From contig JALHFY010000001.1 of NCBI GenBank assembly GCA_022837635.1, positions 23,562 through 87,561 on the forward strand: a DNA stretch of 64,000 nt, written 5' to 3'. Under the pieces are notes generated by a model. That model worked only from the letters and a program-made list of their open reading frames with translations, ran no database searches and was not told where the DNA came from. Shown piece by piece: positions 56,913-59,511 of the stretch (positions within the stretch are counted from its first letter, which is position 1; the number at the start of each line of letters is the position of its first letter). The DNA is from Candidatus Shapirobacteria bacterium. Its GTDB lineage: Bacteria; Patescibacteriota; Microgenomatia; UBA12405. The translations under genes and the position numbers were made by a program.

Positions 56913-57665
56913 ATGTATTGTTTATCTTGCGGCAAGAAAATAACAAAAAATAGTAAGTTTTGTAAATATTGTGGTAGTCCTCAAAGAAAACAAAAGACAA
57001 GTTTTTTCAAGGTTTTTTTGATTACTGGAATTTTGTTTTTAATTCTAATCGCAGTTCTGATTATTTATATTAATTTTGAGGAAAAAGAAGCTAATCGTCA
57101 GAAATTGAATTGGGAATTGGTCTTACCTACTTCATCTATTACTCCGACAGAAACACCGGTAAAAGTTAAAAATGATGTTAGTGTCAACAAGATTGTGAGT
57201 GATACTGGTAAAGACAATGAGCCTTGGGGAGTTGCTAAACAGGTTGATGAACATACATGGACAATGAAAGTTGGAAGTGATCCTGTTATGGCAACAAGAG
57301 ATGAGATTTTGAGCGCTCTTAATGAATATCGGAGTAAAAATGGTTCTCAAAAACTTACAGTAGATTCTCAATTAACGGCTTATGCTCAGACACGGGCTGA
57401 TTATTTTGCGGCAAATGGTTTGGATGGACATAAAGGTTTTAACGATTTTTTGGATAATCAGGATGGATTTAAGAAATTGGGTTTTAACTGGTTGGGAGAA
57501 AATGCCAGCTATGGGTACAAACTCAACGGAGTTCATTTGATAGAGTGGGTTTATGGTGGAGATGATCCACATGACAAAAATCAGTTAGATACTAGATGGG
57601 ATCATGTTGGTATTGGGATCAGAGGTACTTCGACTTGTATTATTTTTGGGACTGGTAAAATGTGA
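56913..57665 (+). CDS. CAP/SCP/PR1-like (YkwD-like) domain protein with an N-terminal zinc ribbon and a transmembrane segment
   Basis: ALNEYRSKNG..LGENASYG..WDHVGIGI parallels the Bacillus YkwD SCP domain. Confidence 0.55.
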   Translation: MYCLSCGKKITKNSKFCKYCGSPQRKQKTSFFKVFLITGILFLILIAVLIIYINFEEKEANRQKLNWELVLPTSSITPTETPVKVKNDVSVNKIVSDTGKDNEPWGVAKQVDEHTWTMKVGSDPVMATRDEILSALNEYRSKNGSQKLTVDSQLTAYAQTRADYFAANGLDGHKGFNDFLDNQDGFKKLGFNWLGENASYGYKLNGVHLIEWVYGGDDPHDKNQLDTRWDHVGIGIRGTSTCIIFGTGKM

Positions 57666-58318
57666 GTATGAAAAAATTATTCCAAGTTATGGCTTCTTTG
57701 ATAATTTTAATTATTGTACTTTTAATGGGATGTCTGATTGGTAATAAAACAGGTCAGATTGTTGGCGCTCAACAATATATTGGAAAGTTGTTTTCTAAAA
57801 ACGAGCTTTCTATTTCTACTGATGGAATGCTTGAACAAATTAATACTTTGAGAAAGGCAAATGGAAAATCTGTTTTGACGGAATCGGTTGGAGTTTGTCG
57901 GATAGCTCAAAAAAGAGCTGAAATTAATTTTAAGAATAGTGTGGATATGTGGGATTCTGGGAGCGGTAGTTATAAAGAGGAAGTGGATACAGGATTAGGA
58001 ATTACTTTGGATGATGCAAAAAAAATGTGTCCGGAATGTATTTTTATGAATGATAAAAAACTGGAGGAAAACTATATTGGTGAATTAAATTATGTGATTC
58101 TTCGTCCAGATGTATGCAGTGCTGTTAATAGTAGAGCTGATTTGGCATGCAAGGGTGATGAGAGCTATGGGGTAACGGAACATTTTCCAGAGAGAGTATT
58201 AAAAGGATGGATGGAAACAGATTCATTAAGAGAAACACTTTTGACGGATAATTACGGATTAGGATGTGTGCGTTCTTATGGTGGGAGTGTAGTTTTTATT
58301 ATTGCGGTGAATAAGTAA
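57662..58318 (+). CDS. CAP/SCP-like domain protein (paralogue)
   Basis: LEQINTLRKANG...WMETDSLRETLLTDNYGLGCV. Confidence 0.45.
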   Translation: MSMKKLFQVMASLIILIIVLLMGCLIGNKTGQIVGAQQYIGKLFSKNELSISTDGMLEQINTLRKANGKSVLTESVGVCRIAQKRAEINFKNSVDMWDSGSGSYKEEVDTGLGITLDDAKKMCPECIFMNDKKLEENYIGELNYVILRPDVCSAVNSRADLACKGDESYGVTEHFPERVLKGWMETDSLRETLLTDNYGLGCVRSYGGSVVFIIAVNK

Positions 58319-58351
58319 AAACTGTATATTACAGTTCTGAGTGATTGTAAG

Positions 58352-58573
58352 TCAGTCAAAAATCTCAAAAATTTTTTTCTTTGATTTGCCCCCTTTAAGC
58401 AAAATTATTTTTGATTTCTTGACTTTCAAAAAATCAGCCAATGATTCAATAACGGCTTGGTTGGCTTTACCCTCCAAGGGTGGGGTGTTGACATAGACAT
58501 GAAGCATACCAGTTAGGTCTTTTTTGAATTGGGGATTTTTGGAATTAGGATGAACTACGACTTCTAGTTTCAT
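58352..58573 (-). CDS. DUF167 (YggU/UPF0235) family protein
   Basis: LEGKANQAVIESLADFLKVKKSKIILLKGGKS. Confidence 0.6.
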   Translation of the reverse strand: MKLEVVVHPNSKNPQFKKDLTGMLHVYVNTPPLEGKANQAVIESLADFLKVKKSKIILLKGGKSKKKIFEIFD

Positions 58574-58663
58574 GATTGGATTATATCTTGATTGATTGGT
58601 TTTAAAAAAGTGATGTTTAGATATTTTTTGACATAGTAAAAATACTCAGTATAATCGCTCTAT

Positions 58664-58912
58664 ATGGCAGTAGAGAAGATAGGTGAAGACAATCATTTTC
58701 CACGTGTAGGCAATTGTGGAAGTGGGATTGAGGTGCGTGGTGCGTTAACTGATGATGATATTGAAGCTTTGAAAAATCAGCAAAATCTATTTAAGGATGG
58801 TTGGTGTAATGTACATTTTAGAGGGGTAATGATGAGTTGTTCTTCAAAGACTGGAGAAGTGATAGCAGCATGTCGTGAACTTGATTGTCCGTACTATAGA
58901 AGGACTAAATAG
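58664..58912 (+). CDS. Hypothetical Cys-containing protein
   Basis: An 82-aa ORF. Confidence 0.3.
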   Translation: MAVEKIGEDNHFPRVGNCGSGIEVRGALTDDDIEALKNQQNLFKDGWCNVHFRGVMMSCSSKTGEVIAACRELDCPYYRRTK

Positions 58913-58971
58913 CTAAAAGCTGGAAAGTAATTCAGGAGTGTCTAGAATGGAAATTGTTGTAAACTGAAAGT

Positions 58972-59511
58972 GTGTATACACCCTCTAAGGAACAATTGAA
59001 GCAGTTAGAGATTTTGTTTGAGTTGATAGATAAATGTAAAGAAAAGAGAATCGATATTTGGATTGTGGGTGGTTATGGGTTGGATGCTTTGTATGGAAGT
59101 TTGACCAGAGATCATGGAGATATTGATTTGATAGTTTGGGAGAAAGATTTATTGGTGTTAGGAGACATAGTTGAAGAGATGGGTTTTGTGGAGTATGCGG
59201 ATAAAGTAGAAAAAAATAAAAAAGTGTATCGTCCTGGAACTATTTTAGCTTTAGATGATTCGTTTAAGATTGAATTTGGCAGTATTGAGTTTTATGGTCA
59301 ATTTTTTCCAAAAGAGACATCTTTAGAATTAATTATTTCCAAAAATGAAAATGGATTGATAGAAGGAAAGGCAATTAAAACCTTGACTTTAGAGGGACAT
59401 AAAATAGCGGCTGAGGTTCAAAATCAAAGAGCGTTTCAAGGTAATTGGGGTGAGTACAAACATCAGAAACATTTTGAGAAAATGATTGGTGTGTTAAATG
59501 AAAATAATTAG
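58972..59511 (+). CDS. Lnu(A)/LinA-like nucleotidyltransferase of the ANT(2'') family
   Basis: IDIWIVGGYGLDALYGSLTRDHGDIDLIV parallels Lnu(A) VTYWLDGGWGVDVLTGKQQREHRDIDIDF. Confidence 0.55.
   Translation: MYTPSKEQLKQLEILFELIDKCKEKRIDIWIVGGYGLDALYGSLTRDHGDIDLIVWEKDLLVLGDIVEEMGFVEYADKVEKNKKVYRPGTILALDDSFKIEFGSIEFYGQFFPKETSLELIISKNENGLIEGKAIKTLTLEGHKIAAEVQNQRAFQGNWGEYKHQKHFEKMIGVLNENN

Follow-up and report, generated by a model that had tools for sequence, protein, structure and literature searches.

Does the segment at positions 56913-59511 of the window (the whole 64,000-nucleotide stretch of a Candidatus Shapirobacteria contig analysed here) belong to an acquired island? A preliminary description had taken it, together with an Erm-like gene upstream, for an antibiotic-modification / surface-protein accessory island. 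In our reading the segment is probably chromosomal backbone of a bacterium of the Patescibacteria/CPR type, holding two functionally unrelated units, rather than a horizontally acquired resistance island. One unit, p250-p218, would be a co-transcribed two-gene cassette. The other would be a cytoplasmic 179-aa nucleotidyltransferase with the ANT(2'')-Ia/Lnu(A) fold, with its own transcription, inherited vertically with a downstream Na/Ca-exchanger gene. The Erm gene and a third CAP domain are cargo of a separate 7.3-kb serine-recombinase element (48497-55809) at tRNA-Asn.

This element has 7,313 bp and is inserted at the 3' end of its integration target, tRNA-Asn(GTT) (48424-48498, plus strand). 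The attL core, TTAGAGGGGGAGC, spans 48484-48496. The attR core, TTTTAGGGGGAGC (55797-55809, plus strand), duplicates the 3' end of the tRNA and forms the right end of the element, 1.1 kb left of the segment. In the conspecific contig L014 (99.98% nucleotide identity), the site is empty, with window position 48496 joined directly to 55795. A second copy of the element, 99.7% identical, was found in an unrelated genome (L088), where it occupies a different tRNA-Asn between unrelated flanks. The element, whose genes had matches in Pfam and PHROGs, codes for a large serine recombinase, an Erm-type methyltransferase, an HTH_17 excisionase-like protein, a 390-aa protein, a SpoVG-like protein, a 371-aa protein and a fusion of signal peptidase I with a CAP domain; no relaxase or capsid genes were recognised in it. 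Codon use and GC skew are deviant: codon z values of the element genes were -1.6 to -3.1, Erm excepted (-0.3), and the GC skew of the peptidase fusion was 0.16. The stretch 48497-55809 is a discrete integrative element, showing every island feature tested. It resembles small serine-recombinase tRNA elements in its large serine recombinase and excisionase-like HTH protein, variable cargo, integration at a tRNA 3' end and short duplicated core, but differs from them in its CPR host and in its cargo of an Erm-type methyltransferase and a signal-peptidase::CAP fusion.

The Erm-like gene had been recognised correctly. This gene for an Erm-type 23S rRNA adenine N6-methyltransferase (49963-50850, minus strand) scored 235.6 bits with NCBIfam NF000499 (Erm23S_rRNA_broad; cut-off 212), and its product also passes the ksgA/RsmA model (175.6 vs 171). 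The Erm match is absent from a related element copy in L048, and the gene is variable cargo of the element.

The segment at 56913-59511 is different. It is assigned to the backbone because contig L014, which lacks the element, retains it: the genes for HSP20, p250, p218, DUF167, orf82, the nucleotidyltransferase and the Na/Ca exchanger are all present there, and strains share the block at 99.98% identity whether or not they carry the neighbouring element. None of the marks of an island or integrative element was found in it: there is no recombinase inside, it lies outside attR (55797-55809), and in codon use and GC skew it resembles the host. For p250, p218 and the nucleotidyltransferase, synonymous-codon likelihood gave z values of +0.5 to +2.9, and plus-strand GC skew was 0.32-0.52 vs 0.436 +/- 0.076 in backbone plus-strand genes. 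Their GC content was somewhat low (0.33-0.35, z -1.4 to -2.0).

Could 48.4-60.5 kb nevertheless be a single horizontally acquired island of antibiotic-modifying genes and three CAP paralogues? Erm and one CAP-bearing gene are truly on a mobile element, the GC content at 55-60 kb (0.32-0.36) is the lowest in the window, and the region right of tRNA-Asn varies between species. At the level of the genus, the stretch between a 100-aa gene (47672-47974) and the nucleotidyltransferase is plastic; the relative L001 has a Cas12a locus there in place of tRNA-Asn, HSP20, p250 and p218. However, the element stops at 55809, and the block is absent from L088, the other genome carrying the element. The element, the CAP pair and the nucleotidyltransferase are also unlinked to one another in the other genomes compared, and dS of the nucleotidyltransferase matches that of its syntenic neighbours (see below). 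A single island is largely refuted by the empty-site comparison and seems to us highly improbable.

The three CAP/SCP domains of the preliminary description differed in how well they stood up. One of the three is on the mobile element and two are not. They are not recent paralogues either: pairwise BLASTP gave 25% identity over 110 aa for one pair, 32% over 44 aa for another and no match for the third. The domain is clear in p250 (56913-57665, plus strand), accepted at the family level only in the peptidase C-terminus, and below threshold in p218. CAP and PF10706 matches above threshold do exist in the segment, so that the outcome named beforehand as fatal to the preliminary description, no such match, did not occur; no further CAP or PF10706 genes were found among the 167 window ORFs.

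A cytoplasmic zinc ribbon (aa 2-23) opens p250; a single transmembrane segment (aa ~28-58) then leads through a linker to an extracytoplasmic CAP/SCP domain (aa ~128-245). The zinc ribbon and transmembrane segment had been described before and are confirmed by a Pfam Zn_Ribbon_1 match at aa 2-23 (27.0 bits, cut-off 25) and a hydropathy profile with a single hydrophobic segment at aa 28-58. CAP (PF00188) matched aa 133-236 with E 9.2e-9 and 36.6 bits, above the gathering cut-off of 21.1. Relatives numbered 432 at E<=0.001, some of them annotated as CAP domain-containing protein (Patescibacteria / Ca. Shapirobacteria) or as YkwD; those listed shared 50-70% identity with p250 across the CAP-containing portion (about 60-90% of the length). 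The p250 CAP domain belongs to a large Patescibacteria family, while the zinc ribbon at the N-terminus is confined to the ~10 closest relatives. Against orthologues, p250 showed dN/dS of 0.12-0.16.

A transmembrane CAP family has been described as CPR-typical (10.1101/335083). Like the CPR-enriched CAP family 3.6k.fam08817 (Meheust et al.), p250 has a membrane-anchored, extracytoplasmic PF00188 domain and, judging from the published description, would be a member of that family itself.

The signal peptidase I (S26)::CAP fusion (53895-55700, plus strand) is the right-end gene of the element. It has N-terminal transmembrane segments, a C-terminal CAP/YkwD-like domain (aa ~375-486) and a helical tail. 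The peptidase part is well supported (Pfam S26, 85.6 bits; TIGR02227, 89.2 bits, cut-off 47), with a weak TraF match in NCBIfam. Plasmid- and ICE-borne type I signal peptidases such as SipP and TraF are precedents for an S26 peptidase borne by a mobile element. At E<=0.1, Pfam CAP gave no match in the window's own peptidase C-terminus, and NCBIfam YkwD matched it with E 4e-5, far below the subfamily cut-off. Among its orthologues, however, 15 of 18 matched PF00188 (best E 5.3e-7), and hhalign aligned the C-terminus with the p250 family over 107 columns (89% probability, E 2.1e-6). On these comparisons the C-terminus can be accepted as CAP at the family level. Full-length relatives of the fusion in metagenomes numbered 64.

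The second gene of the pair, p218 (57668-58318, plus strand), encodes an N-terminal membrane anchor or signal segment and a Cys-rich extracytoplasmic domain, which is probably CAP-like but very divergent. Mechanical ORF calling started it at a GTG at 57662, whereas its orthologues begin at the ATG at 57668. The protein had been called soluble; its first 32 residues are strongly hydrophobic in the hydropathy profile, and it is better described as membrane-anchored. Only 13 relatives were found, all of 215-216 aa, and the domain has six invariant Cys, a CPEC motif among them.

Is this domain a CAP domain? It could instead be an unrelated Cys-rich extracytoplasmic domain sharing just an N-terminal helix motif with CAP proteins. 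Its PF00188 score of 18.5 bits (E 0.0039) is below the cut-off of 21.1, and hhalign against the p250 family covered the first helices only (49 columns, E 7e-5, 63% probability). The AF2 model is poor (pLDDT 53.6, with a ~70-residue region below 50), and Foldseek E values were not significant (0.9-1.4). Yet the two best Foldseek matches among 350,542 PDB chains were both bacterial CAP proteins, and the helix-helix...strand-strand order predicted in this low-confidence model fits the CAP sandwich. In addition, 10 of the 13 orthologues matched PF00188 across almost the entire domain (E<=0.1, best 1.3e-4). When the 167 window ORFs were searched with a p250-family HMM from which the window sequence had been left out, the peptidase fusion ranked second (E 0.004) and p218 third (E 0.014). 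An unrelated domain is a possibility that we hold to be doubtful, and a very divergent CAP-like domain is the reading followed below. Bacterial CAP/YkwD proteins such as SAV1118 (4H0A) and BB0689 (4D53) are, for p218 and the peptidase C-terminus, remote relatives of the domain; unlike the CAP families, p218 is lineage-restricted, Cys-rich, sub-threshold and found only beside the zinc-ribbon p250.

The pairing itself is consistent. Adjacent and 2 nt apart, p250 and p218 occur in three lineages with different neighbourhoods, and p218 is directly 3' of a p250 orthologue wherever the context was seen. Their dS values are equal (~1.0), and dN/dS of p218 is 0.15-0.16. By this conservation p218 appears to be an obligate downstream partner of p250. 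Over longer time scales p250-p218 may be a shell cassette, because L016 and L019 carry the pair in other neighbourhoods, some near toxin, Fic or recombinase genes. Upstream of p250 there is a promoter-like site (56806-56835, plus strand; TTAACA-18-TATTAT, 10/12 consensus match), of a kind whose count in the region is not above shuffled expectation. The operon structure proposed here is a prediction from promoter consensus matches alone.

Between the pair and the nucleotidyltransferase are two small genes. The first (58352-58573, minus strand) encodes a DUF167/YggU-family small protein (Pfam PF02594, 67.9 bits) and is a backbone gene, kept in L001 and L016 and found beside the locus in relatives too. 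The second, orf82 (58664-58912, plus strand), is an 82-aa Cys-containing ORF with no family match in Pfam and NCBIfam searches, seen only in its own species plus one 80-aa cluster representative. A predicted sigma-70-type promoter (58628-58655, plus strand; TTGACA-16-TATAAT, 12/12) is directly upstream of orf82 and the nucleotidyltransferase.

The nucleotidyltransferase (58972-59511, plus strand; 179 aa) belongs to PF10706 and has the two-domain fold of ANT(2'')-Ia and Lnu(A). Pfam PF10706 (Aminoglyc_resit) matched aa 15-151 at profile positions 2-129 of 149 (E 2.3e-12, 47.7 bits, cut-off 21), and the AF2 model had a pLDDT of 88.4. In Foldseek the predicted structure matched ANT(2'')-Ia (TM 0.66-0.70) and LnuA (TM 0.62/0.69) over 171-183 columns with E 3e-8 to 1.5e-7. 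Residues 33-55 (GGYGLDALYGSLTRDHGDIDLIV) include R46, H48, D50 and D52, which are invariant in the family and align with R40, H42, D44 and D46 of ANT(2'')-Ia. These are active-site residues there, and mutation of H42 or D44 abolished activity; D44 and D46 bind Mg, R40 and H42 bind the nucleotide, and D86 is the catalytic base (PMC4313920). E101 is also invariant in the family, and the sequence alignment pairs it with ANT(2'')-Ia E79, not D86.

ANT(2'')-Ia (AadB; PDB 4WQK, 4XJE, 5CFU) is like the window protein in its family (PF10706), length (177 vs 179 aa), two-domain fold (~182 columns at the TM values above), R-x-H-x-D-x-D nucleotide/Mg2+ motif and acidic character. It differs in sequence, with 17-19% identity overall and similarity confined to residues ~11-70, and in context, being an integron/plasmid cassette where the window gene is chromosomal and, by its conservation, passed down vertically within a CPR lineage. 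Lnu(A)/LinA and Lnu(D)/Lnu(P) (PDB 4FO1, 4WH5) share the fold and an N-terminal GG...D-x-D motif, but identity in the structural alignment is 15%, the window protein is far below their cut-offs of 300-325 bits, and its gene has no plasmid or transposon context. The C-terminal domain is 15-19% identical to those of ANT(2'')-Ia and LnuA.

A rival reading takes the protein for a true intrinsic chromosomal lincosamide or aminoglycoside O-nucleotidyltransferase, from a new CPR branch within the Lnu(A)/ANT(2'') family. These two resistance enzymes are precisely its best structural matches over both domains. Its conserved active-site residues and its acidic predicted pI (5.1; ANT(2'')-Ia 4.4, Lnu(A) 5.0) would fit too, as would the top NCBIfam matches, Lnu(D) (46.9 bits vs 325) and Lnu(P) (40 bits). 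None of the named resistance families scored in NCBIfam (Lnu(A/C/D/E/P/AN2) and ANT(2'')-Ia) reached its cut-off, though: scores were 20-47 bits vs 300-350, for example 27.2 vs 350 for ANT(2'')-Ia and 20.4 vs 300 for Lnu(A), and most matches spanned just the N-terminal ~60-70 residues. With plasmid-borne aadB and lnu(A), tblastn gave E 0.03-0.9 only. The PF10706-like folds matched also include TM1012 and a fungal antigen, with no known antibiotic link, and a mobile context is absent. In E. coli, no resistance phenotype was seen with the CPR 'resistance' methyltransferases tested (bioRxiv 10.64898/2026.07.13.738296), and caution is therefore needed in inferring resistance from similarity. A genuine resistance enzyme of this kind is, in our judgement, rather unlikely. 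The label 'Lnu(A)/ANT(2'')-like' in the preliminary description is correct for the fold and superfamily, and fails as membership of a named resistance family.

A further reading couples orf82 with the nucleotidyltransferase as a MenT/AbiEii- or MNT-type toxin-antitoxin or defence pair, in which the nucleotidyltransferase would modify tRNA. A small upstream ORF and a nucleotidyltransferase behind one perfect promoter match would suit such a pair, MenT1 is among the weaker Foldseek matches (TM ~0.5), and the neighbouring slot in L001 is a CRISPR-Cas locus. But small-molecule nucleotidyltransferases are far better structural matches, and PADLOC gave no match for either protein. Nor is orf82 kept with the nucleotidyltransferase, whose upstream neighbour differs in every lineage: the orf82 slot in L001 holds a Cas12a-Cas4-Cas1-Cas2 locus and a 433-aa gene on the other strand, and in L005 the neighbour is ruvX. 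We give this reading hardly any credence.

The downstream side is stable. A gene for a Na+/Ca2+ exchanger-family membrane protein (59518-60501, plus strand; Pfam PF01699, 128 bits) follows the nucleotidyltransferase in a conserved arrangement, and the two may share a transcript. L001/L003 have the same gene order, nucleotidyltransferase - Na_Ca_ex - 151/158-aa gene - Metallophos. Between sister species, dS of the nucleotidyltransferase was 0.53 vs 0.51-0.68 for its syntenic neighbours, with dN/dS of 0.21. The gene has co-diverged with its flanking genes and appears to have been inherited vertically. A 49%-identical homologue is located between ruvX and yceG/rpoB on a 236-kb contig (L005).

As a small-molecule nucleotidyltransferase, the enzyme would hold two Mg2+ ions with D50, D52 and E101 and bind NTP with the help of R46 and H48. 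The C-terminal domain would hold a small-molecule acceptor, and one of its hydroxyls would receive the NMP. The acceptor could possibly be an aminoglycoside- or lincosamide-like compound, giving intrinsic tolerance.

A survey of 4,062 CPR genomes reported resistance-like genes in 99.75% of them, including 3,077 erm matches (PMC8651080), which conflicts with the view that such genes are unexpected for an episymbiont-sized genome. The finding at 56913-59511 is ordinary, and the neighbouring mobile element is the more interesting by-product. For the cell surface, p218 would be a membrane-anchored, disulfide-rich, probably CAP-like partner of p250, and the two would act jointly at the membrane's outer face, with a role in the cell envelope or at the cell surface, for example by binding a cell-wall or partner-cell ligand. 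DalA (RSP_1200) of Rhodobacterales is a divisome-associated, envelope-anchored peptidoglycan-binding lipoprotein whose cell-envelope role has been tested (PMC10470522). Unlike this outer-membrane lipoprotein, p250 spans the membrane once, and it is not a DalA member (NCBIfam DalA, aa 119-213, E 9.6e-4, 19 bits vs a cut-off of 200), but DalA sets a precedent for the possible role of a related bacterial domain.

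For the block at 56913–59511, the accessory-island reading of the preliminary description is not supported. The block belongs to the ordinary backbone and comprises a CAP pair that is typical of the lineage and an enzyme that adds a new member to a known fold family. All of it lies beyond the neighboring integrative element, and strains carry it whether or not they have that element (L014, L015 and L090). On the conspecific Logan contig L014, which is 99.98% identical to the window and carries an identical p218 sequence, window positions 40355–48496 are joined straight to 55795–64000. 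This empty site (L014 8128–8142) consists of an intact tRNA-Asn followed by the sequence found after window 55809. Another independent assembly contig, L015, begins exactly at the attR core, its position 1 corresponding to window 55801. Such a start is expected if the sample of L015 was polymorphic for the element.

Gene order was taken from the ORF listing and from Pfam and NCBIfam scans of the window. Left of the block are an HSP20 gene (55866–56297, minus strand; Pfam HSP20) and two small hydrophobic ORFs from the ORF listing (56426–56862, plus strand). The block starts with the gene for p250 (56913–57665, plus strand), a protein with a zinc ribbon (Zn_Ribbon_1, 27 bits), one hydrophobic segment (amino acids 28–58) and a CAP domain. 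The gene for its partner p218 (57662/57668–58318, plus strand) is followed by DUF167/YggU (58352–58573, minus strand; 67.9 bits), orf82 (58664–58912, plus strand; no Pfam or NCBIfam match), the gene for the 179-aa nucleotidyltransferase (58972–59511, plus strand) and, beyond the block, a Na/Ca exchanger gene (59518–60501, plus strand; 128 bits). None of p250, p218, orf82 and the nucleotidyltransferase had a PADLOC or PHROGs match. A perfect match to the promoter consensus TTGACA-16-TATAAT was present at 58628–58655, upstream of orf82 and the nucleotidyltransferase gene, a second perfect match on the minus strand upstream of HSP20, and a 10/12 match upstream of p250; these sites are consensus matches only, and their overall number did not exceed the shuffled expectation. 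Elsewhere in the window, a match to the cobalamin riboswitch (14156–14276, plus strand; 35.9 bits against an Rfam gathering threshold of 31.5) was found upstream of an ORF at 14273–15118.

Composition was analyzed per gene with reference to 54 backbone ORFs, for which the codon z is 0 by definition. The synonymous-codon likelihood z was +0.5 to +2.9 for p250, p218 and the nucleotidyltransferase, and –1.6 to –3.1 for the element genes apart from Erm (–0.3). Plus-strand GC skew was 0.32–0.52 for the three block genes, 0.436 ± 0.076 for backbone plus-strand genes, and 0.23 for backbone minus-strand genes. In the element, it was about 0 for minus-strand genes and 0.16 for the fusion gene, which is 3.6 sd below backbone plus-strand genes and therefore sets the element apart from the block. 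The GC content of the three block genes was 0.33–0.35 (z –1.4 to –2.0). Codon use and skew of the block are host-like and its AT-richness is only mild. The window as a whole has an unusually strong plus-strand GC skew (per-gene mean 0.345), falling to about 0 only within the integrative element.

The element (48497–55809, 7,313 bp, at tRNA-Asn) is real, well delimited and recently transferred horizontally between CPR-type genomes. It encodes a large serine recombinase (Resolvase, Recombinase and Zn_ribbon_recom domains; phrog_95 integrase), an Erm-type methyltransferase, an HTH_17 excisionase-like protein, a 390-aa protein, a SpoVG-like protein, a 371-aa protein and a signal-peptidase-I::CAP fusion (53895–55700). 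Its att cores are TTAGAGGGGGAGC at 48484–48496 and TTTTAGGGGGAGC at 55797–55809. The direct-repeat search for att sites did not list this short core, which was found only through the empty-site comparison and a pattern search. The exact fusion protein is also encoded in NCBI assembly GCA_964419005.1 (L088), where the whole element (L088 4530–11919) has 99.7% nucleotide identity and lies at a tRNA-Asn of different sequence among entirely different flanking genes. The ends of the element are fixed by these two insertions and one empty site, and the 99.7% identical copy in unrelated flanks indicates the recent transfer. A circular or attP junction (TTTAGGGGGAGCCAACTTTGACGAG) was not found in IMG/VR or in any fetched locus. 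Just left of the tRNA-Asn in L088 (1665–4387) are genes for a double-ABC ATPase (ABC-F-like, 492 aa) and three glyoxalase/bleomycin-resistance-like proteins, which are more resistance-like genes in a CPR-type genome. Directly left of the tRNA-Asn integration site in the window is the gene for a 722-aa TraD/VirD4/TrwB-like coupling-protein homolog (45082–47250, minus strand); it belongs to the backbone because the strain without the element has it too.

A mini form of the element was seen in many metagenome loci (L023–L026 and L049, compared with L048 and window 48795–53846). It consists of tRNA-Asn, about 295 bp of the recombinase 3′ end, the peptidase-CAP gene and a conserved right end of about 100 nt finishing in TTTAGGGGGAGCCA. 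Two distant lineages share the position of its left deletion junction. In L074, an attP-like junction of right end and left end follows the peptidase-CAP gene. A tRNA-Asn lies 350–800 bp upstream of the peptidase-CAP gene in many loci, as it would if the gene were a native neighbor of this tRNA and the element had only inserted between the two. We rejected this explanation: the loci keep the conserved right end as well as the 3′ end of the recombinase gene, and the empty site and the second insertion both place the fusion within the element. The short loci are internal-deletion derivatives of the element, because they retain these two parts. That the fusion was a separate, older islet was also rejected, as a search for a middle att copy separating the 371-aa gene from the fusion found none.

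The fusion protein (about 601 aa) has several transmembrane segments in its N-terminal part and a clear S26 domain (85.6 bits; TIGR02227, 89.2 bits against a cut-off of 47), and the S26 motifs SMYPT, KRIIGLPGD and GDNRKGSSDSR are present in the window copy. Full-length relatives were found in 64 metagenome loci (L022–L085) with 38–86% identity, including contigs of 0.3–0.9 Mb.

Three CAP-domain paralogs had been proposed. For p250, the CAP domain is clear (PF00188, 36.6 bits against a cut-off of 21.1). The C-terminus of the window fusion had no Pfam CAP match at E≤0.1, a YkwD match in NCBIfam (E 4e-5), and 25% identity to p250 over 110 aa by BLASTP (E 1e-4). When the C-termini of 18 of the 64 full-length relatives were aligned, 15 of them matched PF00188 (best E 5.3e-7), and their profile matched the p250 family over 107 columns (89% probability, E 2.1e-6). 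From these two matches, the fusion C-terminus is predicted to be a CAP domain at the family level. For p218, a CAP domain is probable only. Its own CAP match (18.5 bits) was below the cut-off, and 10 of its 13 orthologs matched CAP at E≤0.1. By hhalign, it matched the p250 family at E 7e-5 but over only 49 columns, and the peptidase C-terminus family at E 5e-4. The AF2 model of p218 was so poor (pLDDT 53.6) that a fold search with it had little meaning; its two best PDB matches were the bacterial CAP proteins BB0689 and SAV1118, with non-significant E-values. A p250-family HMM built with the window sequence left out ranked the fusion second and p218 third among the 167 window ORFs and detected no further CAP gene among them. 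The three domains are mutually very divergent, so the term paralogs overstates their relationship. Nor is p218 soluble, as had been stated: its first ~30 residues are strongly hydrophobic.

Only 2 nt separate the p250 and p218 genes, which are neighbors in the window species as well as in L016–L018 (73% identity) and L019–L021 (71% identity), with different surroundings in each. Both have dS of about 1.0 and dN/dS of 0.12–0.16. The CAP domain of p250 has 432 relatives at E≤0.001, some named as CAP-domain proteins of Patescibacteria or Ca. Shapirobacteria, or as YkwD. Only about 10 relatives share the zinc-ribbon form, and p218 is limited to 13; these counts suggest that the two form an obligate pair. 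Together, they would act outside the cytoplasm as a membrane-anchored module of two proteins, serving the envelope or the cell surface. p250 also weakly matches DalA, a divisome lipoprotein that binds peptidoglycan (PMC10470522); as a lead rather than a test, this is a precedent for a function in the envelope. The position of the pair is not conserved at the genus level. The pair could have "shell" status over longer times, because L001, a sister-species locus, lacks it at this place.

The 179-aa protein had been likened to Lnu(A) and ANT(2″), and the motif on which this was based is present at amino acids 33–55. We found it to be a member of the PF10706 fold family (47.7 bits against a cut-off of 21). 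The AF2 model was confident (pLDDT 88.4, pTM 0.84), and its best PDB matches over both domains were ANT(2″)-Ia (TM 0.66–0.70, E ~3e-8) and LnuA (TM 0.62/0.69), followed by TM1012, a fungal nucleotidyltransferase-like antigen, FKRP and MenT1. In an alignment with plasmid aadB and lnu(A), R46, H48, D50 and D52 correspond to R40, H42, D44 and D46. In ANT(2″)-Ia, D44 and D46 bind Mg2+, R40 and H42 aid nucleotide binding, and mutation of D44 or H42 abolishes activity (PMC4313920). The invariant E101 is likely the third carboxylate and only putatively the equivalent of the catalytic base D86. Since only ~60 N-terminal residues align reliably with the Lnu and ANT(2″) references, we compared folds and relied on model scores. 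Every curated Lnu and ANT(2″) model gave the protein 20–47 bits, with cut-offs of 300–350, and tblastn against 72,556 plasmids gave aadB and lnu(A) only at E 0.03–0.9. Therefore, the protein belongs to none of the named resistance families. PADLOC gave no defense or toxin-antitoxin signature for it or for orf82. The enzyme would catalyze Mg2+-dependent NMP transfer onto a hydroxyl of a small molecule; an antibiotic is a possible but less likely acceptor.

The history of the gene appears to be vertical. Around its nearest relative (81% identity, L001–L004), Na_Ca_ex, a 151/158-aa gene and Metallophos are arranged as in the window. Its dS (0.53) and dN/dS (0.21) match those of its syntenic neighbors (0.51–0.68 and 0.11–0.23), which argues for co-divergence with them under purifying selection. 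In the window, the interval from DUF167 to the nucleotidyltransferase (58589–58951) has only orf82; in the sister species, exactly this place is taken by a complete type V-A CRISPR-Cas locus, Cas12a (1,336 aa)-Cas4-Cas1-Cas2, and a 433-aa gene (L001 542–6343). A 49%-identical homolog lies between ruvX and yceG/rpoB on a 236-kb contig. Among species-representative genomes, the gene was found at five loci only: in three Saccharibacteria MAGs, one Chloroflexota MAG and one MAG labeled Pseudomonadales. A profile search of 1.84 billion representatives gave 1,316 proteins at E≤0.001 and only 33 at E≤1e-30; about 55 matched over the full length and the others in the N-terminal core only. Where organism names were available, the relatives were mostly Patescibacteria. 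The nucleotidyltransferase and the CAP pair are unlinked in other lineages. In another lineage, a 36%-identical homolog occurs 3.4 kb downstream of the mini-element on the minus strand (L023 6118–6594, L024 8168–8644).

Resistance-like genes had been thought unexpected in an episymbiont-sized genome. In a survey of 4,062 CPR genomes, 99.75% had such genes, with 3,077 erm matches and adenylyltransferases enriched in Microgenomates (PMC8651080), and CPR "resistance" methyltransferases gave no resistance phenotype in E. coli (2026 preprint, 10.64898/2026.07.13.738296). Such genes are therefore not unexpected, and similarity alone is no proof of resistance. A joint reading would make the enzyme a chromosomal, vertically inherited member of a small clade (~55 full-length cluster representatives) acting on an antibiotic-like natural product, and p250–p218 a lineage-specific heteromeric CAP surface module for envelope maintenance or host contact. 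We consider this combination unlikely; if true, an episymbiont would have in the nucleotidyltransferase an intrinsic enzyme for resistance or detoxification, of a progenitor type.

A "resistance island" called from similarity thus splits into a lineage-typical surface-protein pair, a vertically inherited enzyme and a separate, well-delimited mobile element, which is a caution for CPR resistome surveys that count genes by similarity. The block finding itself is of little importance, and the neighboring element is the more noteworthy result. With exact boundaries, an empty site and, in an unrelated CPR genome, a copy of 99.7% identity, it is direct evidence of recent horizontal transfer between such organisms; it is also a concrete system for work on mobile DNA in CPR organisms.
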